A DNA stretch of 64,000 bases from Gammaproteobacteria bacterium (GTDB lineage: Bacteria > Pseudomonadota > Gammaproteobacteria > DATFLL01): the NCBI GenBank assembly GCA_035267785.1, contig DATFLL010000075.1:41579-105578 (forward strand), in the 5' to 3' direction. Both the position numbers and the translations under genes were made by a program. Positions 36,558 through 47,472 of the stretch are shown here, piece by piece. Each line of letters begins with the position of its first letter. Positions within the stretch are counted from its first letter, which is position 1. Under the pieces are notes generated by a model. That model ran no database searches, was not told the DNA's origin, and saw only the letters and a list, made by a program, of their open reading frames with translations.

Positions 36558-37103
36558 TCATGAGGCGCGCGAGGTGGGGGTGATGGTGCCGGTGTGCAGA
36601 CCGTAGTGTCCGCGGTGCCGGTCGCCGAAGAAGTGGCGCAGCGTCTCGTGAATCGTACGAAAGGCGAGCCGCTCCCATGGGATATCGGACTCGGCGAACA
36701 AGGCGACCTCCAGGCTCTCGTCGCCGGCGCGATAGTGCAGGTCCAGCAGGCGCGCCCGGTACATGATATAGACCTGATTGATGTGCGGCAGGTCGAACAT
36801 GGAGTACAGCGAGAGGATCTCGATGTTGGCGTTGGCCTCTTCCTTGGCTTCGCGCGCCGCCCCTTCACCCGTGGTCTCACCGTTTTCCATGAACCCGGCC
36901 GGCAGGGTCCACAGTCCGTAGCGCGGCTCGATGGCGCGCCGACACAGCAGGACCTTGTCTTCCCACACCGGAATTGCGCCCACGACCATCTTCGGGTTCT
37001 GGTAATGCACCGCGTTGCACGCGTCGCAGACGTACCGGGGTAGGTTGTCGCCTTCGGGGATGCGCAGGGTGACGGAGTGGCCGCAGTGGCTGCAAAAATT
37101 CAT
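36558..37103 (-). CDS. NUDIX hydrolase with N-terminal zinc ribbon (NudC-like architecture)
   Basis: CSHCGHS...CDAC zinc ribbon. NUDIX box GFMENGETTGEGAAREAKEEANA. Confidence 0.8.
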   Translation of the reverse strand: MNFCSHCGHSVTLRIPEGDNLPRYVCDACNAVHYQNPKMVVGAIPVWEDKVLLCRRAIEPRYGLWTLPAGFMENGETTGEGAAREAKEEANANIEILSLYSMFDLPHINQVYIMYRARLLDLHYRAGDESLEVALFAESDIPWERLAFRTIHETLRHFFGDRHRGHYGLHTGTITPTSRAS

Positions 37104-37209
37104 GGGCGGATGGCGTGGCGTTGTCGAGCGTTTTCCCGATTCCCGGATCGGACTGCAAAGCGATTACTATGGTGTGCGAACGCCTGGGTACGCGGCGCAC
37201 CGGGGCGTG

Positions 37210-37446
37210 TTATACGCCGCGCAGCGAGACACCGTCATTGAGCCACGCCGCCCATTGAGCGTGCAGGGAGACGTCGACGCCGTCTTCGCGGGCACGTCTC
37301 TGCAGGATGCGCTGCAGATCGTGCATGAGTTCCGAGTCCATCAACTCCATGTGCTCGGGTAACTGTGAGTGTAGAATGCGGTAGACCCGCTTGAGATCCT
37401 CGATCGGATAGTCGGCAAGAGGGCGCATGCTCTGGGCCTCGGTCAT
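37210..37446 (-). CDS. Small hypothetical protein (78 aa) immediately downstream of hspQ
   Basis: MTEAQSMRPLADYPIEDLKRVYRILHSQLPEHMELMDSELMHDLQRILQRRAREDGVDVSLHAQWAAWLNDGVSLRGV. ATG lies 17 nt after the hspQ stop. No strong RBS. Confidence 0.4.
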   Translation of the reverse strand: MTEAQSMRPLADYPIEDLKRVYRILHSQLPEHMELMDSELMHDLQRILQRRAREDGVDVSLHAQWAAWLNDGVSLRGV

Positions 37447-37462
37447 GATGCGTTGCCGCGCT

Positions 37463-37795
37463 TCAATTCCAGCGCTGGCGTGTGACGTAGCCGTCACCTT
37501 TGAACTCGGTGAAGAAGTCGCCGAGCAGCGGATGCTCGATCGGCCGATCGCTGGTGTCGGGCTCCAGGTTGCGTTCGGCCACGTAGGTCGTGTGCTCGGC
37601 GCCGTCGACCAGGACATGGTACCAGGGCCGGTCCTTGGGCGGGCGGCTGCGGGCCACCTGCTCGTACCATTGGTCGCTGCCCTGGAAGACGGGGTCGACA
37701 TCGACCACGACGCCGCGGTAGTCGAACAGGCGGTGGTGGATGAGCTGTCCCGGGGCAAAACGCGCGCCGCCGGAATGCAGGCCTTGCATGCTCAT
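37463..37795 (-). CDS. hspQ: Heat shock protein HspQ (YccV-like hemimethylated-DNA-binding domain)
   Basis: [37 protein letters not shown] ... compare E. coli HspQ ...[25 protein letters not shown]. 110 aa. Confidence 0.8.
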   Translation of the reverse strand: [110 protein letters not shown]

Positions 37796-37805
37796 GATTG
37801 GCAGC

Positions 37806-38090
37806 CTATTTTTTCTGGCCCTGCGGGGTGTAACCCGCCGGCAGTTGGCCGTAGTCGCCCTCGCCGAACAGGAAGCCCCGCATATGCAGCTCGATGACCT
37901 CGAGGCTGCCCGGATCGGCCGTGCTGAGGCGGTTTTCGTTGAGGATGGTGGCCAGGCGCTGCAGCCACTGCTTCCAACCCTCTTCGGAGACTTCTTCGAA
38001 GATGCGCTGTCCGAGCTCACCGGGATAGGGCGGGCGAGGCAGGCCCTCGGCCTCGCGTTTCAGAACCTGACAAAAGACCATACGAGTCAT
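37806..38090 (-). CDS. yggX: Fe(2+)-trafficking protein YggX
   Basis: MTRMVFCQVLKREAEGLPRPPYPGELGQRIFEEVSEEGWKQW aligns to E. coli YggX [42 protein letters not shown]. Confidence 0.85.
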   Translation of the reverse strand: MTRMVFCQVLKREAEGLPRPPYPGELGQRIFEEVSEEGWKQWLQRLATILNENRLSTADPGSLEVIELHMRGFLFGEGDYGQLPAGYTPQGQKK

Positions 38091-38235
38091 ATCAATACCA
38101 ATTCGGTCGTGCGTCTACACGGACGCGGCGTGAACTGCTAAAATACCAAGTAATTAGCTAGGTTATTATTGCCCCCGCGCTACGCGGAGTCAAATGGCAT
38201 ACTGCAGGGCAAATTGTAACAAAGGAGTCGTGATA

Positions 38236-38619
38236 ATGAATGTGAGCGCAGCACAAGCCTTCCCGTCTACCCTGGGCGAGATGGAGATGCGTCTGAGTGG
38301 CGAGGCCCGGAGCAAGATGGCCGAGCTCATGGCACAGGCCGATGAGGAGGTCAGCGCCATTCGGGTGTTCGTCTCCGGCGGCGGCTGCAGCGGCATGACC
38401 TACGGTATGACCTATGCCACGGAGCAGGCGCCGCAGGACAGCGTGTTGGAGGGCGAAGGGTTTCGAATTCTGGTCGACCCGGTCGCGCTGAACTACCTGC
38501 AGGGCTGTGAGATCGATTTTCTCAGCGACGGTTTGAATGCAACCTTCGTGTTCAACAACGTCTTCCAGGCCGTGGGCGGCAGCGGCGGCTGTGCCGGCTG
38601 CGGCGGCGGCGGATTCTGA
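38236..38619 (+). CDS. HesB/IscA-family A-type iron-sulfur carrier protein with a Gly-rich C-terminal tail
   Basis: IRVFVSGGGCSGMTYGMTY ... FRILVDPVALNYLQGCEIDFLSDGLNATFVFNN ... GGCAGCGGGGF parallels IscA LRLGVRTSGCSGMAYVLEF...CGCGESF, with all three ligand Cys present. RBS AAAGGAG 8 nt before the ATG. Confidence 0.8.
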   Translation: MNVSAAQAFPSTLGEMEMRLSGEARSKMAELMAQADEEVSAIRVFVSGGGCSGMTYGMTYATEQAPQDSVLEGEGFRILVDPVALNYLQGCEIDFLSDGLNATFVFNNVFQAVGGSGGCAGCGGGGF

Positions 38620-38641
38620 GCACCGCTTGCCAGCGCCACGA

Positions 38642-39901
38642 ATGCCGTCTCGTCTGTTGGTCGTCGCTCCGCACGGCAGCTATCGTACCGCCCCCTTCAT
38701 CGATGCCGCCCGGCGCCTCGGCGCGCAGGTATTGATCGCCTCTGAGGGCCGCCATTCGGTGGTCAGTGCCTATGCGCAGGGGCTGCATATCCGCTTCGAC
38801 GACCCGGATGGGGCCCTGGCGACGATACTGGCCGAGGCCGAACGCGGCGGTCCGTTCGCCGGTGTCGTCGGCACTGACGACGCGAGCACCGAGCTGGCCG
38901 CACGCGTGGCCGGGCTCTTGGGTTTGCCGCACAACGACCCCACGGCCGTGCGTATCGCCCGACGCAAGGACCTGGCGCGGGGGCGTCTCGCCGAAGCCGG
39001 TGTGCCCGTGCCGGCGCATCGGTGCATATCGCTGGCGGCGGGCGCCGCGGACCCGGCCGAGCAGGTCGCCGGACTGGGCTATCCGGTGGTGGTCAAGCCG
39101 CTGGCGCTGTCGGCCAGCCGCGGCGTCATCCGCGCCGACGACCCGGCACAGCTGCGCGAGGCCTGCCTGCGCGTCGGGCGGCTGCTGCACAGCGAACAGG
39201 GGCTCGAGGCCGAGGCCCGCGATCGGGTCCTGGTCGAGCGCTTCGTGCCCGGCGCCGAGGTCGCCGTGGAGGGAATGCTCCGCGGCGGCGAGCTCGAGGT
39301 GTTGGCCGTGTTCGACAAGCCGGACCCGCTCGAGGGGCCATACTTCGAGGAGACCTATTACATTGCGCCCTCGCGCCTGGGGGCGGACCGCCAGCACCAG
39401 CTGGCCGAAACCGTCGCCGCGGCTTGTCGCGCGTACGGCCTGCGCGAGGGGCCCATCCATGCCGAGTGCCGTCTTAATGAAGAGGGCGTGTGGATATTGG
39501 AGGTCGCCGCGCGCACCATCGGCGGCCTGTGCTCGCGCCTGCTGCGCGTGGGGACGGGGCACGGGCTGGAGGAGTTGGTGCTCGCCCACGCCATGGGCGA
39601 GCCGTTGGCGCACGCGCCCGATGATGGAGCGGCCGGGGTCTTGATGATTCCCATCCCGCAGGCCGGGCTGCTCAAGCGCGTCGAAGGCCTGCTGGAGGCC
39701 CAACGCGTGCCGTACGTGGAGGACATCCAGATCCAGATCCGCGAGGGCAACGAGGTCGTGCCGCTGCCCGAGGGGGCGAGCTATCTCGGCTTCATTTTCG
39801 CCCGTGCGCCCAGCCCCGCCGAGGCCGAACAGGCGCTGCGCCGCGCGCATGCCTGTCTGCGCATCGTGGTCGCGCCCCTGTGGCGGATCCAGGTCGCCTG
39901 A
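38642..39901 (+). CDS. ATP-grasp domain protein (carboxylate-amine ligase superfamily), substrate unknown
   Basis: N-terminal pre-ATP-grasp LLVVAPHGSYRTAPFIDAARRLGAQVLIA. Central GLGYPVVVKPLALSASRGV. C-terminal VLVERFVPGAEVAVEGMLRGGELEVLAVFDK. Starts 22 nt after the iscA-like stop. Confidence 0.75.
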   Translation: MPSRLLVVAPHGSYRTAPFIDAARRLGAQVLIASEGRHSVVSAYAQGLHIRFDDPDGALATILAEAERGGPFAGVVGTDDASTELAARVAGLLGLPHNDPTAVRIARRKDLARGRLAEAGVPVPAHRCISLAAGAADPAEQVAGLGYPVVVKPLALSASRGVIRADDPAQLREACLRVGRLLHSEQGLEAEARDRVLVERFVPGAEVAVEGMLRGGELEVLAVFDKPDPLEGPYFEETYYIAPSRLGADRQHQLAETVAAACRAYGLREGPIHAECRLNEEGVWILEVAARTIGGLCSRLLRVGTGHGLEELVLAHAMGEPLAHAPDDGAAGVLMIPIPQAGLLKRVEGLLEAQRVPYVEDIQIQIREGNEVVPLPEGASYLGFIFARAPSPAEAEQALRRAHACLRIVVAPLWRIQVA

Positions 39902-39954
39902 GCGCCGCGCGACCACCGAATCTTTACACCGAACCGAATTCCAGGAGCATCACC

Positions 39955-41028
39955 ATGGCCGAACAACGCGCCGCACCGCAAGAATATCAACTGGTCGAGA
40001 CCGGATTGCAGGAGCGTCTGTCCGACGGCACGACCCGCTGTCACCTCTGCTTGTGGCGCTGTCGCCTGCGCCACGGTCAACGCGGTTTTTGCCAGGCCCA
40101 CGTCAATCGCAACGGTACGCTGTACAACCTCTCCTACGGCATCATCTCGGCCATCGACGTCGATCCGATCGAGTCCAAGCCCGTGCGCCTGTACCGCCCG
40201 GGCACGCAGGTGATGTCCATCGGCAGCTACGGATGTAACTTCCGCTGCGGCGGCTGCCACAACCTGGAGATCTCCTGGGGCACCGAGGCGCTGGATGCGC
40301 TGGCCCGAGGCGAGTCGACCGCGGCCTATGTCACGCCCGAGGCCATGGTCGCCGCCGCCGTACGCCACGGGGTCGAGGGCATCGCGTTTACCTATTCGGA
40401 ACCGGCCGTGTGGCTCGAATACGTCGAGGACGTCTCGCGTCTGGCGCACGAGGCCGGACTCTACACGGTGTATGTCTCCAACAGCTTCGTGACCGACGAG
40501 GCCCTGGAGCGCATCGCACCCCATACCGATGTCTTGTGCTCGGATATCAAGAGCCTGGACGATGCGTTCTATCGCGATATCTGCGGTCTGGCCAGCGTCG
40601 AGCAGGTGCTCGGTTCCATCGAACGCGCCGCGCGCCTCGGCGTGCACGTCGAGACACGCACCAACATCATCCCCGGGCGCAACGACGACCCCGACATGTT
40701 TCGCGGGATTGCCGAATGGATTCGCGATCACCTCGGCGCCGACAGCCCCTGGCACATCACCAAGTTCTTTCCGGCCTATCGCCTGGAGCATCTGCCTCAG
40801 ACGCCGAGCGAGACGCTGTGGCGTGCCCATGACGCGGCGCGCGCGGCGGGGCTTCGCAACGTCTACGTCTATGACGACAAGGGCTGCGACTGCGCCGAGG
40901 AGAACCTGCCCGTCGACGCCTATCTCGACGACGACCCCACCGCACTGCACGCGGTCAAGAAGTGCGCCGCCTCCTGCTGCGGTTCCGAGGGTATTCTGCT
41001 CAAGAAATACGAACGCGCCGCTGACTGA
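39955..41028 (+). CDS. Radical SAM enzyme of the AmmeMemoRadiSam / PFL-activating-enzyme-like family
   Basis: N-terminal Cys box RCHLCLWRCRLRHGQRGFC (CxLC..CxL..G..GFC pattern characteristic of this family). Radical SAM motif GSYGCNFRCGGCHN (CX3CX2C). RBS AGGAG. Confidence 0.85.
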   Translation: MAEQRAAPQEYQLVETGLQERLSDGTTRCHLCLWRCRLRHGQRGFCQAHVNRNGTLYNLSYGIISAIDVDPIESKPVRLYRPGTQVMSIGSYGCNFRCGGCHNLEISWGTEALDALARGESTAAYVTPEAMVAAAVRHGVEGIAFTYSEPAVWLEYVEDVSRLAHEAGLYTVYVSNSFVTDEALERIAPHTDVLCSDIKSLDDAFYRDICGLASVEQVLGSIERAARLGVHVETRTNIIPGRNDDPDMFRGIAEWIRDHLGADSPWHITKFFPAYRLEHLPQTPSETLWRAHDAARAAGLRNVYVYDDKGCDCAEENLPVDAYLDDDPTALHAVKKCAASCCGSEGILLKKYERAAD

Positions 41029-41135
41029 CGGCGGTGGCCGATCGGCGCGCCGTGTTCGGTGCGCGACGTATGCAAACAGCCACGGCGCCGCGGCCCCGTC
41101 GGCATGCCGCGCGCCTCAACCCCAAGGAGGACGTC

Positions 41136-41651
41136 ATGCGAAATACCAGAGGCCTTACGACCTTCTCCGCGGTCCTGCTGCCCCTGATCCTGGTGTTTGC
41201 CGCCGGGGCGGCGCGGGCGGACGATGTGCCCGCCGTGCCGCTGGACAAGGCGGTGATCAAGATGCGCCTGCACAAGGGCGTGACCATGGACGATGCGATT
41301 TCCTCGATGAAGCTGCGCGCCAACATGCTCAACATGAAGCTGGTGGCCCATCTGCCCCTGTCCAAGCAGATCGAGGCGATGGGCAAGAAGGCCCGGCGCA
41401 TGGAGGTGTTCCAGTTCTGCAACCCCCTCATCGCCCAACAGATGGTCGAGTCGAACATCGACTTCGCGGCCTACCTGCCTTGCCGCATCGCACTGGTCGA
41501 AGACGAACACGGCCAGGGCTGGCTGGTGATGACCAACCTGAACATGATTATCCGCGGCGGACACCTCGAACCGAAGCTCAAGGCCAAGGCCGAGCGGGTG
41601 CGCGATGCGCTGATGAAGATCATGAAGGCCGGCGCGGGCGGCGAATTGTAA
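41136..41651 (+). CDS. Secreted DUF302-domain protein
   Basis: Signal peptide MRNTRGLTTFSAVLLPLILVFAAGAARA. DUF302-like core FQFCNPLIAQQMVESNIDFAAYLPCRIALVED. RBS AAGGAGG. Confidence 0.7.
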   Translation: MRNTRGLTTFSAVLLPLILVFAAGAARADDVPAVPLDKAVIKMRLHKGVTMDDAISSMKLRANMLNMKLVAHLPLSKQIEAMGKKARRMEVFQFCNPLIAQQMVESNIDFAAYLPCRIALVEDEHGQGWLVMTNLNMIIRGGHLEPKLKAKAERVRDALMKIMKAGAGGEL

Positions 41652-41672
41652 CGGCTGCGCTGCGCGCGGACT

Positions 41673-43130
41673 TCAGGACGAGCAGCTGACCTGGATACGC
41701 CCGGCCCATTCCGGTGGTTCGGCGGCATAGTCTTCCATGTCCGGGCGCTCGGCGAAGGGATCGGCGAGCAGGTCGAGCAGCCGGTCGACCTCGGCGAACT
41801 CGCCGCGCTCGGCCTCGACGATCGCCTGCTGGGCGAGATAGTTGCGCAGGATATATTTCGGATTGGTGCGCCGCATGCGCTCGGCGCGTTCGCCGGGCTC
41901 GCCGCCCTCGGTCGCAAGGCGTGCCCGATAGCGGTCGGCCCACGCGTCGAAGGCCTCGCGGTCGTCGAACATCTCGCGCGGGCTGTCGCCGTCGATATCG
42001 AATCGGCACAGGCAGCGGAACAGGCGGGTGTAGTCGACTCGATCCTTACCCATCAGCTCGAGCAGGTCCGTGACCAGCGGGACCACCTCCCGGTCGTGCT
42101 CGCGCAGACCGAGCTTGGCGCGCATGAGATCCAGATAACGGGTGACGAAGGCGGACTCGTACAGGTCCAGCGCTTCGCGCGCGGCGTCGACCTCGATCAG
42201 GGGTGTCAGTGCCTGGGCCAGGCAGGTGAGGTTCCACAGCCCGATCTGGGGCTGCTGGCCGAAGGCGTAGCGGCCGGTGTGGTCGCTGTGGTTGCAGATG
42301 AAGTCGCTGTCGTAGGCGTCGAGAAAGCCGAACGGCCCGTAGTCGATGGTCAGGCCGAGGATGGACATATTGTCGGTGTTCATCACCCCGTGTGCGAACC
42401 CGACGGACTGCCAGTGCGCGATGAGGCGCGCCGTGTCGAGCACGGCTCTGCGCAACAGCTGCAGGTACTTGTCCGGGGCATCGGCGAGATCGGGGAAGTG
42501 TTCGTCGATGACATAATCGGCCAGGCGGCGCAGTGACTCGTGCTGGTCGCGGTAGAAGAAGACCTCGAAGTGACCGAAACGCACGTGCGAGGGCGCCAGG
42601 CGCGCCAGCAGCGCGCCCGTCTCTTCGGTCTCGCGGAAGACCGGCGCTTCGGTACCGATGACGCACAGGGCGCGGGTGGTGGGGATGCCCAGCCCGTGCA
42701 TGGCCTCGCTGCACAGGTATTCGCGGATGCTCGAGCGCAGCACGGCACGCCCGTCGCCGCCGCGCGAGTAGGGCGTCGGTCCGCTGCCTTTGAGTTGAAT
42801 GTCCCATTTCTCGCCGTGCGTGTTGCGCACCTCGCCGAGCAGGATCGCGCGCCCGTCCCCGAGCTGAGGCACGTAGACACCGAACTGGTGCCCGGCATAG
42901 AGCATGGCCAGGGGTTCGCTGCCGGGCAGGGCCTTCCGGCCGGTGAGGTAGTCGATGAATTCCGGGCGCTCCGCCTCGCCGGGGTCGAGGTCGAGCAGGG
43001 CCGCGGCCCGCGGATTGAAGCTGACCACGTGATGGTCGGCATCGAACGGCTGCGGGGCGACGCGCGAATAGTGTGCCTCGGGCAGCCGGGCGAAACTGTT
43101 GTCGAAGCGTAGTTGTTCCAGACTCGGCAT
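41673..43130 (-). CDS. selO: Protein adenylyltransferase SelO (YdiU/UPF0061)
   Basis: LEQLRFDNSFARLP ... YAGHQFGVYVPQLGDGRAILLGEV ... GSGPTPYSRGGDGRAVLRSSIREYLCSEAMHGLGIPTTRAL ... HGVMNTDNMSILGLTIDYGPFGFLD. Confidence 0.9.
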   Translation of the reverse strand: MPSLEQLRFDNSFARLPEAHYSRVAPQPFDADHHVVSFNPRAAALLDLDPGEAERPEFIDYLTGRKALPGSEPLAMLYAGHQFGVYVPQLGDGRAILLGEVRNTHGEKWDIQLKGSGPTPYSRGGDGRAVLRSSIREYLCSEAMHGLGIPTTRALCVIGTEAPVFRETEETGALLARLAPSHVRFGHFEVFFYRDQHESLRRLADYVIDEHFPDLADAPDKYLQLLRRAVLDTARLIAHWQSVGFAHGVMNTDNMSILGLTIDYGPFGFLDAYDSDFICNHSDHTGRYAFGQQPQIGLWNLTCLAQALTPLIEVDAAREALDLYESAFVTRYLDLMRAKLGLREHDREVVPLVTDLLELMGKDRVDYTRLFRCLCRFDIDGDSPREMFDDREAFDAWADRYRARLATEGGEPGERAERMRRTNPKYILRNYLAQQAIVEAERGEFAEVDRLLDLLADPFAERPDMEDYAAEPPEWAGRIQVSCSS

Positions 43131-43230
43131 CGTTGTCTCGGCAGCGGTTATCGATGGCATCGATTGGCGGCCATGATAACGTGTCTGGCGTTGGATATAG
43201 TCGCGGAGTTTATATGGACATCATCAGCGA

Positions 43231-43776
43231 ATGCCTGCACCTGTGTTGGGCGCACGGCCGGGCGGCGGCGAGCGGCGTCGGGGGCGGGTCTTGAATCTCA
43301 GCCGCTGGGGGCGTCGGCTGGGTTTCCTGTCCGAGCGCCGGCGCCTGGAATTGTTTCCGCCGTTTTGGTTGATGCGCGTCAAGGTACTGGAGATCGCCGA
43401 GGACGGGCGGCGCATGCGCCTGCGTCTGCCGCTCAATGCCGCCTCGCGCAATATGGGCGGGGCCATGTTCGGCGGTTATCAGGCCGCGCTGGCCGATCCC
43501 ATCCCCGCCCTGGCCTGCGCACGCGTGTTTCCGGGCTATTCGATCTGGACCCGTGCCCTGCGGCTTGACTTTCGCCGCGAGGGGACCTCGGACCTGGAGC
43601 TGCGCTTTGAATTTCCCGTCGAACTGGAGACCCGCGTTCGGGAGGAGCTGAGCACGCGCGGGCGCAGCACGCCGCATTTCGAGCTGGGTTTCTACCGCGA
43701 CGATGGCGTCCTGTGCACACTCGTGCATAATACCGTCGCCATCCGCCCGCGCGGATACCGCGCCGGCGGGGGCTGA
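43231..43776 (+). CDS. Hotdog-fold thioesterase-like protein (DUF4442/YiiD C-domain-like); start uncertain
   Basis: NMGGAMFGGYQAALADPIPALACARVF ... TRALRLDFRREGTSDLELRFEFP is PaaI/DUF4442-like. Possible starts are 43231 (ATG) or 43372 (ATG, MRVKVLEIAEDG). Confidence 0.55.
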   Translation: MPAPVLGARPGGGERRRGRVLNLSRWGRRLGFLSERRRLELFPPFWLMRVKVLEIAEDGRRMRLRLPLNAASRNMGGAMFGGYQAALADPIPALACARVFPGYSIWTRALRLDFRREGTSDLELRFEFPVELETRVREELSTRGRSTPHFELGFYRDDGVLCTLVHNTVAIRPRGYRAGGG

Positions 43777-44653: not shown

Positions 44654-44707
44654 CGCCGGCATCTTGCCGCCGCGGCGCTGGCGCGCGGTCGGTCTGTGAA
44701 GGGAGAC

Positions 44708-45496
44708 GTGAGTTTGGCCAATGAGATTCACCCCACGGCGCTCGTGGCGCCGGGCGCGCGACTCGGCGAGGGTAACCGGATAGGTCCCTTTGCCATCGTC
44801 GAGGACGATGTCGAGCTGGGCGACGGCAACGCGGTCCTGGCCCACGCGGTGCTCAAGGCGGGCTGTCGCATCGGCAATGCCAACCGCATTCACGAGCACG
44901 CGGTGATCGGCGGCCTGCCGCAGGATGTCTCCTTCGAGGACCGGTGGACCTTCGTGACCATCGGCGATCGCAACGTGCTGCGCGAGGGCGTCACCGTGCA
45001 CCGCGCCACCCGTGAAGAGGGCAGCACGCGCCTGGGCAACGACAATTTTCTGATGGTGAACGTGCACCTGGGCCATGACTGCCAGTTCGGCGACCGTATC
45101 ATCGTCGCGACCGGCTCGGGATTCGGCGGTCACGTATCGGTGGCCGATCGTGCCTTTGTGTCGGGTGGGGTCATGGTGCACCAGCACGCCCGGATCGGCC
45201 GGTTCGCCATGATCGGCGGCAACACCAAGCTTACCCAGGACGCCCTGCCGTTTATGATCACCGACGGGGTGCCGGGTACGGTGCGCGGGCTCAACGCGGT
45301 AGGGCTCAAGCGCGGCGGTTTTGCCGCTGCCGACCTGCGCGCGCTCAAGCAGGCCTACCGGACCCTGTTTCGGGCCGGCGGCTCTCTGGAGGGGCACCTC
45401 GCAGAGCTCGCCGCCAGCGAGCATCCCCTGGTCGCAGAGCTGGCCGCCTTCATCGGCGCGTCCAAGCGGGGATTTCACCGCGATCGGGAGCTGTGA
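44708..45496 (+). CDS. lpxA: Acyl-[ACP]--UDP-N-acetylglucosamine O-acyltransferase
   Basis: ANEIHPTALVAPGARLGEGNRIGPFAIV ... hexapeptide repeats ... GLKRGGF (compare E. coli LpxA SAFVHPTAIVEEGASIG...GLKRRGF). Start is ambiguous: GTG 44708 or TTG 44714 after AAGGGAGA. Confidence 0.8.
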   Translation: MSLANEIHPTALVAPGARLGEGNRIGPFAIVEDDVELGDGNAVLAHAVLKAGCRIGNANRIHEHAVIGGLPQDVSFEDRWTFVTIGDRNVLREGVTVHRATREEGSTRLGNDNFLMVNVHLGHDCQFGDRIIVATGSGFGGHVSVADRAFVSGGVMVHQHARIGRFAMIGGNTKLTQDALPFMITDGVPGTVRGLNAVGLKRGGFAAADLRALKQAYRTLFRAGGSLEGHLAELAASEHPLVAELAAFIGASKRGFHRDREL

Positions 45497-46254: not shown

Positions 46255-47472
46255 GTGAGACGCGTTGTGATTACCGGACTGGGTATCGTCTCCAGCATCG
46301 GCAACAACCGGCAGGAAGTCATCGATGGCCTGCGCCAGGGGCGCTCGGGCATCGAGTTCCAACAGGAATACGCCGACCTGGGCTTTCGCTCCCATGTGGC
46401 CGGCCCCATCGGCTTGAACCCGGATGAGCTGATCGACCGCAAGATCCGCCGCTTCATGGGTGACGGCGCCGCGTTCAACTATATCGCCATGCAGCAGGCG
46501 ATCGACGACGCCGGTCTGGAGGAGACCGAGGTCTCCAACCCTCGCACGGGCCTCATCATGGGTTCGGGCGGCGCCTCGACCGAAAACCAGCTCCTGGCCA
46601 CCGATACCCTGCGCAGCAAGGGGATCCGGCGCGTCGGTCCGTATATGGTCCCTCGGACCATGTCCAGCACCAACTCCGCGTGTCTGGCGACCCCGTTCAA
46701 GATCAAGGGCGTGAATTACTCGATCAGCTCGGCCTGTTCGACCAGCGCCCATTGCATCGGCAACGCGGCCGAGCTCATCCAGTTCGGCAAGCAGGACATG
46801 GTGTTCGCCGGCGGCGGCGAGGAAGTGCACTGGACACTGTCGCTGCTGTTCGACGCCATGGGCGCGCTGTCCTCCAAGTACAACGATCGGCCTCAGTCCG
46901 CCTCACGGGCCTACGATGTCGATCGCGACGGTTTTGTGATCTCCGGCGGGGGTGGCGTGCTGGTGCTCGAGGAGCTCGAACATGCGAAGGCGCGCGGGGC
47001 CAAGATACATGCCGAGCTCGTCGGCTACGGCGCTACCTCAGACGGCTACGACATGGTGCAGCCCTCCGGCGAGGGTGCCGTGCGCTGCATGCAGCAGGCG
47101 CTGGAGAACGTCGAAGGCCCTATCGACTACATCAATGCCCACGGCACCAGCACACCGGTGGGCGACGTGCGCGAGCTGCAGGCCGTGCGCGAGGTCTTCG
47201 GCGACTCCGTGCCGCCGATCAGCTCCACCAAGTCCCTGACGGGCCATGCCCTGGGCGCCGCGGGTGTCAATGAGGCGATTTACTCGCTGTTGATGATGGA
47301 GCAGGGGTTCATTGCCGCCTCTGCCAATATCGAAAATCTCGACCCCGAGGCCGAAGGCTATCCCATCGCGCGCGAGCGCCAAGACGGCGTGACCCTGGAG
47401 CGAGTCATGTCGAACAGTTTCGGTTTCGGCGGCACCAACGCCTGCCTCGTCTTCCAGCGCTACCACGACTGA
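46255..47472 (+). CDS. fabB: 3-oxoacyl-[ACP] synthase I
   Basis: GTG start [18 protein letters not shown] (E. coli [18 protein letters not shown]). [34 protein letters not shown]. 9 nt after the fabA stop. Confidence 0.95.

Follow-up and report, generated by a model that had tools for sequence, protein, structure and literature searches.

What do an A-type iron-sulfur (Fe-S) carrier, an ATP-grasp ligase and a radical S-adenosylmethionine (rSAM) enzyme do in one tightly packed row of genes? The question is raised by positions 38236-41651 of a 64,000-nucleotide stretch of gammaproteobacterial DNA (contig DATFLL010000075.1, here called the window). A preliminary description made from the sequence alone had presented these genes as a four-gene cassette closed by a DUF302 gene, and had treated the neighboring yggX as a landmark outside it. 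Comparison of about 160 related loci showed that the conserved core is a different one: it is made up of an iscA-like carrier, an ATP-grasp ligase and a distinct type of YggX, and rSAM genes join it recurrently but are optional. A palindrome conserved between the yggX and iscA-like promoters matches footprinted IscR sites, and we tentatively read the locus as an Fe-S stress module. The genes concerned are:

38236-38619, + strand: iscA-like gene, 127 amino acids (aa), ribosome-binding site AAAGGAG upstream
38642-39901, + strand: ATP-grasp gene, 419 aa
39955-41028, + strand: rSAM gene, 357 aa, ribosome-binding site AGGAG upstream
41136-41651, + strand: DUF302 gene, Shine-Dalgarno sequence upstream
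37806-38090, - strand: yggX, 94 aa, divergent from the iscA-like operon

Organization of the Locus

The four open reading frames (ORFs) on the + strand, the gaps of exactly 22, 53 and 107 nt between them, the low-GC leader and the protein motifs were all found as first described, and a hidden Markov model (HMM) check upheld all four domain calls. The leader shared by yggX and the iscA-like gene (38050-38349) has a GC content of 0.53 compared to about 0.65 nearby. A terminator scan detected no terminator on the + strand inside the operon; the hairpin present at the rSAM stop codon lacks a T-run on that strand. An Rfam scan of positions 37000-43500 (E <= 0.1) returned zero matches and thus no riboswitch or leader RNA.

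YggX, Carrier and Ligase Form the Conserved Core

Two sets of loci were compared, one containing the 80 best rSAM matches in genomes and one containing 80 metagenome loci found via the ATP-grasp protein. For the rSAM survey one genome per species was scanned, which yielded 407 relatives; the 80 best (71-81% identical) were used and their loci classified by tblastn with the window proteins. The exact protein of the window recurs in a metagenome-assembled genome that NCBI labels Gammaproteobacteria, and on a metagenome contig as well.

In the metagenome set the iscA-like gene lies directly upstream of the ATP-grasp gene in 55 of 58 informative loci (95%), the two genes being separated by about 59 nt in the median and overlapping in some cases. 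The gene taken for an outside landmark proved to be the most faithful partner of this pair: of 52 informative loci, about 44 have yggX next to the module, in one of two orders, namely divergent from iscA or, in convergent orientation, just past the ATP-grasp gene. Of 42 informative ATP-grasp loci, about 8 (about 20%) have the AmrS-like rSAM gene beside the ATP-grasp gene. Viewed from the rSAM side, the ATP-grasp gene is a neighbor in 37 of the 80 loci (about 46%), mostly in the order yggX divergent from iscA, ATP-grasp and rSAM, and 43 loci (about 54%) have no ATP-grasp gene within 4-7 kb. The rSAM gene stands alone and convergent with a canonical mutY-yggX operon in 23 loci (among L002-L061; for example L082, 8001-11027), and 21 of the 80 show neither the ATP-grasp nor the mutY-yggX arrangement. 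Because the stand-alone rSAM genes are convergent with mutY-yggX, both subtypes of YggX end up beside an rSAM gene. These locus counts therefore define an invariant core of type A YggX (see below), iscA-like carrier and an ATP-grasp ligase of the L-amino-acid-ligase (LAL) type, with rSAM genes as recurrent but optional additions.

The neighborhood survey, proposed in the preliminary description itself, thus dissolves the four-gene unit: a DUF302 gene follows rSAM in 0 of the 80 genome loci and, among the 80 metagenome loci, in L087 only, whose rSAM protein is 93% identical. Joint conservation does hold for the other three genes together with yggX. The suggested link between ligase, rSAM enzyme and dedicated carrier stands in so far as the genes are tightly coupled where they co-occur, since in the 38 loci with the order iscA, ATP-grasp, rSAM the ATP-grasp stop precedes the rSAM start by a median of 21 nt and the two genes overlap in many cases; it has to be given up for rSAM as an obligatory member.

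Several further arrangements were found. In three Thiogranum genomes, in L163 and L164 and in the symbiont of Gigantopelta aegis, whose genome is complete (L174), rSAM is followed by yggX, and both are convergent with iscA and ATP-grasp; the start of yggX and the stop of rSAM overlap in the symbiont. ATP-grasp and rSAM are divergent in L060, and in L037 a second ATP-grasp paralogue, 41% identical, lies downstream of rSAM. ATP-grasp is followed by rSAM with neither iscA nor yggX present in L069, and in L160 mutY and a type B-like yggX are followed by ATP-grasp after 460 nt.

Sulfuricaulis and Burkholderiales have the triad as well. In other lineages an rSAM gene of an unrelated family is found after yggX, divergent from iscA and ATP-grasp. 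It is related to ArsL and encodes a CUAEP/CCAEP tail (NF040546, 608 bits compared to a cut-off of 500), and was detected in at least 11 loci, plus the Sulfuricaulis and Burkholderiales contigs. It is represented by:

L084, 3771-5487, - strand: CUAEP/CCAEP-tail rSAM gene, co-directional with type A yggX; also in L085, L086, L103-L107, L113, L115, L151, L152 and L167

L151 has yggX, CUAEP rSAM and ATP-grasp in this order and lacks iscA. A YggX-rSAM fusion of 574 aa (L086, 3694-5418, - strand) was rejected as most likely an indel artefact of long-read assembly, because the same contig carries a split DUF169 gene and a truncated iscA and a neighboring contig of the sample has separate genes. Genes for a methyltransferase, DUF169, ZnuA and Fur were considered as additional module members and set aside as lineage-specific only.

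The Three Core Proteins

YggX was found in Salmonella as a suppressor of Fe-S-dependent ThiH and ThiC defects. The window protein carries PF04362, scores 104.2 bits against NF003817 (cut-off 74) and contains Cys7 (MTRMVFC), which identifies it as a YggX. It is 65-79% identical to those YggX proteins of Gamma- and Betaproteobacteria whose genes adjoin iscA and ATP-grasp, compared to 46-55% for those linked to mutY. The triad-linked proteins, here called type A, form a subfamily of their own, sharing 69% identity among themselves and 48% with the mutY-linked type, which resembles E. coli YggX.

The iscA-like protein belongs to the A-type carrier family, with 82.9 bits against TIGR00049 (cut-off 58.8) and 46.8 against PF01521 (cut-off 26.3), and remains below the cut-offs of the equivalog models for ErpA (75.7 versus 117 bits), IscA (65.5 versus 150.6) and SufA (69.2 versus 136.2). 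The unusual Gly-rich C-terminal tail that had been pointed out earlier is present in the translation (GGSGGCAGCGGGGF). The protein carries GGGCSGMTYGMTY and a C-terminal VGGSGGCAGCG, after which the Gly tail begins. In 34 orthologues GGGC[SG]GM.YGMT and the C-terminal VGGSGxCxxCG are kept; the Gly tail behind them is variable and often contains a further Cys, and the last residue or residues vary (F, G, A, CA, CG or GY). The C-terminus reads C-x-x-C-G in place of the canonical C-G-C ligand pair. In the alignment with the IscA model, which extends to residue 120, the conserved tail cysteines fall on the cluster ligands of ordinary A-type carriers.

HMM scans detected PF13535, PF18603 (LAL_C2) and PF18130 in the ATP-grasp protein. 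A profile search against the PDB returned BL00235 (3VOT; E = 7.7e-60, residues 56-409). The structure prediction suggested in the preliminary description was carried out with AlphaFold2 (AF2); the model has a predicted local distance difference test score (pLDDT) of 91 and shows an LAL fold, with 3VOT as top fold match (template modeling score, TM, 0.84). Judged by sequence and predicted fold, the protein is of the LAL type, a full-length relative of the ligases of free amino acids, which it resembles rather than the RimK/LysX type.

A Conserved Palindrome Lies Between the Divergent Promoters

In E. coli and Pseudomonas, erpA, nfuA and iscA are IscR Type-1 targets. Three elements were located in the window between yggX and the iscA-like gene:

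38136..38144, + strand: putative extended -10-like element TGCTAAAAT of the iscA operon, read from the sequence
38142..38166, no strand assigned: putative operator, a 25-bp IscR Type-1-like palindrome AATACCAAGTAATTAGCTAGGTTAT between the opposed -10 boxes
38165..38193, - strand: predicted sigma-70-like yggX promoter TTGACT-17 nt-AATAAT (promoter scan, 10 of 12 matches), its -10 abutting the operator

This layout is fixed in the yggX-iscA intergenic regions of Gammaproteobacteria: an extended -10 directed toward iscA, the 25-bp palindrome, and TATTAT on the + strand, corresponding to the yggX -10 on the opposite strand. TGnTAnAAT is found at the same place in at least 15 orthologous intergenic regions.

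The IUPAC consensus for IscR Type-1 sites of E. coli, which gave no match in the window with up to 3 mismatches, was too strict, and the consensus from P. aeruginosa was therefore used together with a matrix; this consensus and four DNase-footprinted P. aeruginosa sites were taken from published work (PMC6599224). AATACCAAGTAATTAGCTAGGTTAT shows 2 mismatches to it and is the best match of the whole window, and among the orthologous sites the count goes down to 0-1 mismatch. The matrix was built from the inner 17 positions of 17 orthologous sites, excluding the -10 boxes. It gave 12.5-23.4 bits on the four footprinted sites, compared to 9.0 bits for the 99th percentile of shuffled sequences and 7.6 bits for the 99.9th percentile of the 25-mers of the window. 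The top match in the window is the palindrome at 38142-38166 with 20.6 bits. Considering its conservation, its position and its match to the footprinted sites, we infer that a single IscR-type operator controls both the yggX and the iscA promoters. Weaker matrix matches at 46874 (- strand, 12.7 bits) and 11739 (+ strand, 11.3 bits) are probably due to chance, since they lie inside long ORFs.

The rSAM Enzyme Belongs to a Separate AmrS-Like Clade

The rSAM protein carries CHLCLWRCRLRHGQRGFC and CNFRCGGC, and the first reading of this enzyme as not a generic rSAM protein, based on its N-terminal Cys box and CX3CX2C, was supported. Equivalog models of the glycyl-radical activases PflA, NrdG and YjjW gave 31-49 bits compared to cut-offs of 131-250, and no gene for a glycyl-radical enzyme was found in any listed neighborhood. 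TIGR04337 (AmmeMemoRadiSam, AmrS) was the sole NCBIfam model passed, with 230.2 bits (cut-off 220), in an alignment covering only positions 5-284 of 349, so that the last 65 positions are unmatched. Members of the clade score 222-230 bits (clade representative P0241, 221.6), compared to about 378 bits over positions 1-334 for the canonical members fused to AmrA. The canonical C-terminal CxxC...CxxC segment is replaced in this clade by a conserved CDCA...CxxxCC tail (YVYDDKGCDCA...KKCAASCCG); the invariant CDCA and the distal CC motif are both shared with a sister clade. The clade is isolated, forming a single cluster at 50% identity with its next relatives at most 49% identical. The core fold of the AF2 model is nearest to the pyruvate formate-lyase activating enzyme (PFL-AE), and its C-terminal tail has no confident structure (pLDDT 47-74). 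The hosts of the 80 best relatives are sulfur-oxidizing Gammaproteobacteria (Acidiferrobacterales, Chromatiales, Ectothiorhodospiraceae, Thiohalobacter, Thiogranum, Woeseiaceae, Granulosicoccaceae and others).

Homologues of AMMECR1 and Memo had been reported missing from the neighborhood, and indeed none turned up in the 64 kb of the window or across about 170 related loci, to which the search was confined. A scan of the window for the LRGCIG motif gave no match, and tblastn of the window with the additional domains taken from 19 AmrS fusion proteins matched the rSAM gene alone. By its sequence the enzyme is AmrS-like and belongs to a separate subfamily with a CDCA...CC tail.

The names SaoL and SaoD and the theme of CC/CU tails are taken from a preprint by Haft and Gwadz. 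Contexts of the sister clade were available from three loci only and provide a lead rather than a test. In L170 (7217-9017) a SaoD-like DsrE protein gene is followed by a NifU_N scaffold gene, directly upstream of rSAM, and by rSAM itself, with the genes overlapping. L171 (7371-14266) contains a MerR gene, rSAM, SaoL (a MerB-like lyase) and NifH-like, NifDK-like and NifB-like genes. L172 (1-10211) begins with three MerB-like genes and genes for ThiF, ThiS, cysteine desulfurase, NifU_N and a PP-loop ATPase, and continues with a methyltransferase, rSAM, another methyltransferase and an aminotransferase. Sulfur- or metal-handling genes are thus present in all three loci, and an IscU/NifU_N scaffold gene in two of them (L170 and L172). 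The CDCA...CC tail of the sister-clade enzymes often ends in CC-COOH-like residues.

DUF302, selO and the Flanking Genes

Downstream of and around the module the following features were noted:

41673-43130, - strand: selO, convergent to the cassette
36558-37795, - strand, and 44696-45496, + strand: housekeeping flank common to many window-type loci

The DUF302 protein carries PF03625 and an N-terminal hydrophobic stretch ending in ARA followed by DD, which by eye resembles a Sec signal peptide. In L168 and L169 a DUF302 gene lies 5.5 kb downstream. The gene looks like a lineage-specific passenger, inserted between rSAM and the lpxA-like gene. The flank contains genes for a Zn-ribbon NUDIX protein, a 72-aa ORF, a YccV/HspQ-like protein and an lpxA-like acyltransferase, the last followed in relatives by fabA-fabB. 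selO lies directly downstream of rSAM in about 8 other loci as well (L008, L064, L068, L071, L079, L081, L087); its E. coli orthologue, ydiU, is an IscR-regulated gene, and a link through the regulon is possible.

A Possible Fe-S Stress Module

We tentatively propose, as the best-supported of the readings considered, quite possible and still far from settled, that type A yggX, the divergent iscA-like gene and the LAL-type ATP-grasp gene form an Fe-S stress module by which a radical enzyme rich in clusters is provided with them. Gene content, domain identities, the conservation pattern across loci and the match of the operator to footprinted IscR sites are what the analysis shows; IscR binding, co-transcription, cluster transfer, the ligase substrates and the rSAM reaction are inferred. 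In the window the unit would be extended by the Cys-rich AmrS-like rSAM gene, which would be co-transcribed with iscA and ATP-grasp. The IscR Type-1-like operator between the opposed -10 boxes would block both promoters as long as [2Fe-2S]-IscR is abundant. When Fe-S clusters are short or oxidized, holo-IscR would fall and the yggX(A) and iscA-ligase(-rSAM) transcripts would be released. YggX(A) and the carrier with its presumably flexible Cys/Gly tail could then deliver or rebuild Fe-S clusters on the adjoining oxygen-labile, multi-cluster rSAM enzymes; the recipient would be the CDCA...CC-tail enzyme in the window and the ArsL-related CUAEP/CCAEP-tail enzyme in other lineages. The ligase may make a small molecule joined by an amide bond, in the simplest case an alpha-dipeptide, serving as the rSAM substrate or as a thiol or ligand for cluster handling.

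Several observations weigh against this proposal. We know of no role of an ATP-grasp ligase in Fe-S biogenesis, and the place of the ligase is therefore the weakest link of the model. Both locus sets consist of the 80 best matches to window proteins, so that the co-occurrence fractions are biased toward window-like arrangements. Synteny extends to the flanking nudix, lpxA-like, fabA and fabB genes, and shared ancestry thus explains part of the gene order. A search of the window for iscR and iscU found neither, which leaves the operator assignment without an internal control. The operator is not enriched upstream of the stand-alone rSAM genes, 2 of 42 exceeding the 95th percentile of the controls; since these copies lack it, rSAM is not generally part of this regulon. 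Finally, the intergenic regions of Betaproteobacteria and Acidiferrobacterales carry a different conserved motif that fits the IscR matrix poorly, with the blocks CATTGTAGTACGGAA, ATTGCCACATGAA..GCGGTGAT and TTCTTGAATTCGG...AGTACCAT (L084, 5487-5652, L085, L113 and similar loci).

A bolder form of the Fe-S stress proposal is that YggX(A), the CxxC-tailed carrier and the ligase constitute an unrecognized ATP-dependent, IscR-switched route, which loads or regenerates auxiliary clusters, or passes on sulfur or a soft metal, on rSAM enzymes with Cys-Cys tails (AmrS-like with CDCA...CC, ArsL-like with CUAEP/CCAEP) for C-S or C-metalloid chemistry. In this extended form we consider it unlikely.

Alternative Explanations

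The main alternative, built on the preliminary description, is a self-contained pathway in which the product of the ligase, a dipeptide or similar amide, is the direct substrate of the rSAM enzyme, with the IscA-like protein and YggX doing no more than keeping the clusters loaded. Such a pathway is favored by the spacing, as most of the 38 co-directional loci have 0-30 nt, or an overlap, between the end of ATP-grasp and the beginning of rSAM, and by the second ATP-grasp paralogue in L037 and the divergent neighbors in L060. Sister-clade rSAM genes lie in biosynthetic clusters (L172, and L171 with SaoL and nitrogenase-like genes), and to our knowledge every characterized LAL makes a small peptide. 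A pathway of this kind is, however, weakened by an rSAM gene that has only about 8 of the 42 informative ATP-grasp genes as neighbors, that occurs without ATP-grasp nearby in more than half of its own loci (43 of 80), and whose place is taken in other lineages by an unrelated rSAM family. Moreover, no transporter, resistance or precursor-peptide gene is present at the locus, where the intergenic gaps are too short for a precursor-peptide ORF. We regard this explanation as possible, though on the unlikely side.

Alternatively, rSAM could be a mere syntenic neighbor, its function unrelated to that of the triad and its position a legacy of common ancestry. Conservation around the window-type arrangement is equally high for the flanking nudix, lpxA-like, fabA and fabB genes, rSAM is as conserved (72-81% identity) without the triad as with it, and the stand-alone copies lack the operator, all of which would be expected in this case. 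The adjacency was, however, kept across at least four gene orders and strand arrangements, the link to yggX applies to both YggX subtypes, and in L174 the stop and start codons of rSAM and yggX overlap. Persistence through rearrangement points to more than inherited synteny, and the explanation by descent alone appears improbable.

It is very unlikely that the protein is an ordinary AmmeMemoRadiSam enzyme (AmrS) whose partners AMMECR1 (AmrA) and Memo (AmrB) are encoded elsewhere in the genome. TIGR04337 is indeed the sole family above its cut-off, NCBI gives close relatives this name, the N-terminal CxxCxxxC...C box is retained, and a canonical amrS-amrB-amrA cluster is present in Acidihalobacter, a related genus (PMC9062700). 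Against this stand the threshold score, well below that of AmrA-fused members, the unmatched end of the model with its replaced C-terminal cysteines, the distance to the nearest relatives (at most 49% identity), and the lack of AmrA and AmrB genes in the window and in the about 170 related loci. An arrangement analogous to LysW/LysX, in which the ATP-grasp enzyme would ligate a substrate to the tail of the IscA-like protein and the rSAM enzyme would act on the tethered group, is hardly to be expected at all, for although iscA and ATP-grasp are the tightest pair (95% adjacency) and the tail is Gly-rich and presumably flexible, its C-terminal residue is not conserved, it is not acidic, its cysteines align with ordinary cluster ligands, and the ligase resembles the ligases of free amino acids over its full length.

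Significance

YggX is widespread and its mechanism is unsettled; here a conserved type A paralogue gains concrete partners, namely a carrier, a ligase, two rSAM families and a putative Fe-S-sensing operator. If the ATP-dependent route for clusters, sulfur or metal were true, YggX would gain defined partners together with client enzymes. The analysis further separates a large and highly conserved rSAM clade (72-81% identity across orders of sulfur-oxidizing Gammaproteobacteria) from the database name AmmeMemoRadiSam, and it suggests, on the strength of gene linkage, a first connection of the LAL family to Fe-S biology. The carriers of these genes are abundant sediment sulfur oxidizers and symbionts. 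All parts of the module come from known families. Their combination is undescribed, and a literature search found no description of a YggX/IscA-like/ATP-grasp/rSAM module.

Comparison with Known Systems

The rSAM enzyme shares with AmrS (TIGR04337) the N-terminal CxxCxxxC...C box, the CX3CX2C core and a PFL-AE-like barrel. It differs in its borderline score, its CDCA...CxxxCC tail and its isolated clade, and in the loci examined its genes have Fe-S and iron-trafficking genes as neighbors instead of AMMECR1 and Memo. With the CC/CU-tail (CUAEP-tail) systems it has in common a Cys-Cys motif near the C-terminus, and the CUAEP-tail family holds the equivalent place beside yggX, iscA and ATP-grasp in other lineages. 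The window enzyme, in contrast, is of another lineage, being PFL-AE-like without a B12-like N-terminal domain, and has no selenocysteine and no SAO transporter genes.

The ATP-grasp protein is similar to the L-amino acid ligases BL00235, YwfE/BacD and RizA in full-length sequence and predicted fold, including the LAL C-terminal domain. Known LALs occur in antibiotic or stand-alone gene contexts, and we are not aware of any report of an LAL beside Fe-S carriers, YggX or radical SAM genes. Type A YggX shares the fold family, Cys7 and a score above the NF003817 cut-off with the YggX of the mutY-yggX operon, from which it differs by the signature EGWxQWLxRLxxIxNENxLxTADP and by its location away from mutY, tied to iscA and ATP-grasp. 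The closest parallel for the regulation is provided by the Fe-S carrier genes that IscR regulates in E. coli and P. aeruginosa (erpA, nfuA and iscA), in which a gene for an A-type fold likewise lies behind a Type-1-like palindrome overlapping the promoter (PMC6599224). Compared to those carriers, the window protein has a CxxC motif with a Gly tail instead of CGCG and scores below the ErpA, IscA and SufA cut-offs; its gene is predicted to be co-transcribed with an ATP-grasp ligase gene and to share its operator with the divergent yggX.

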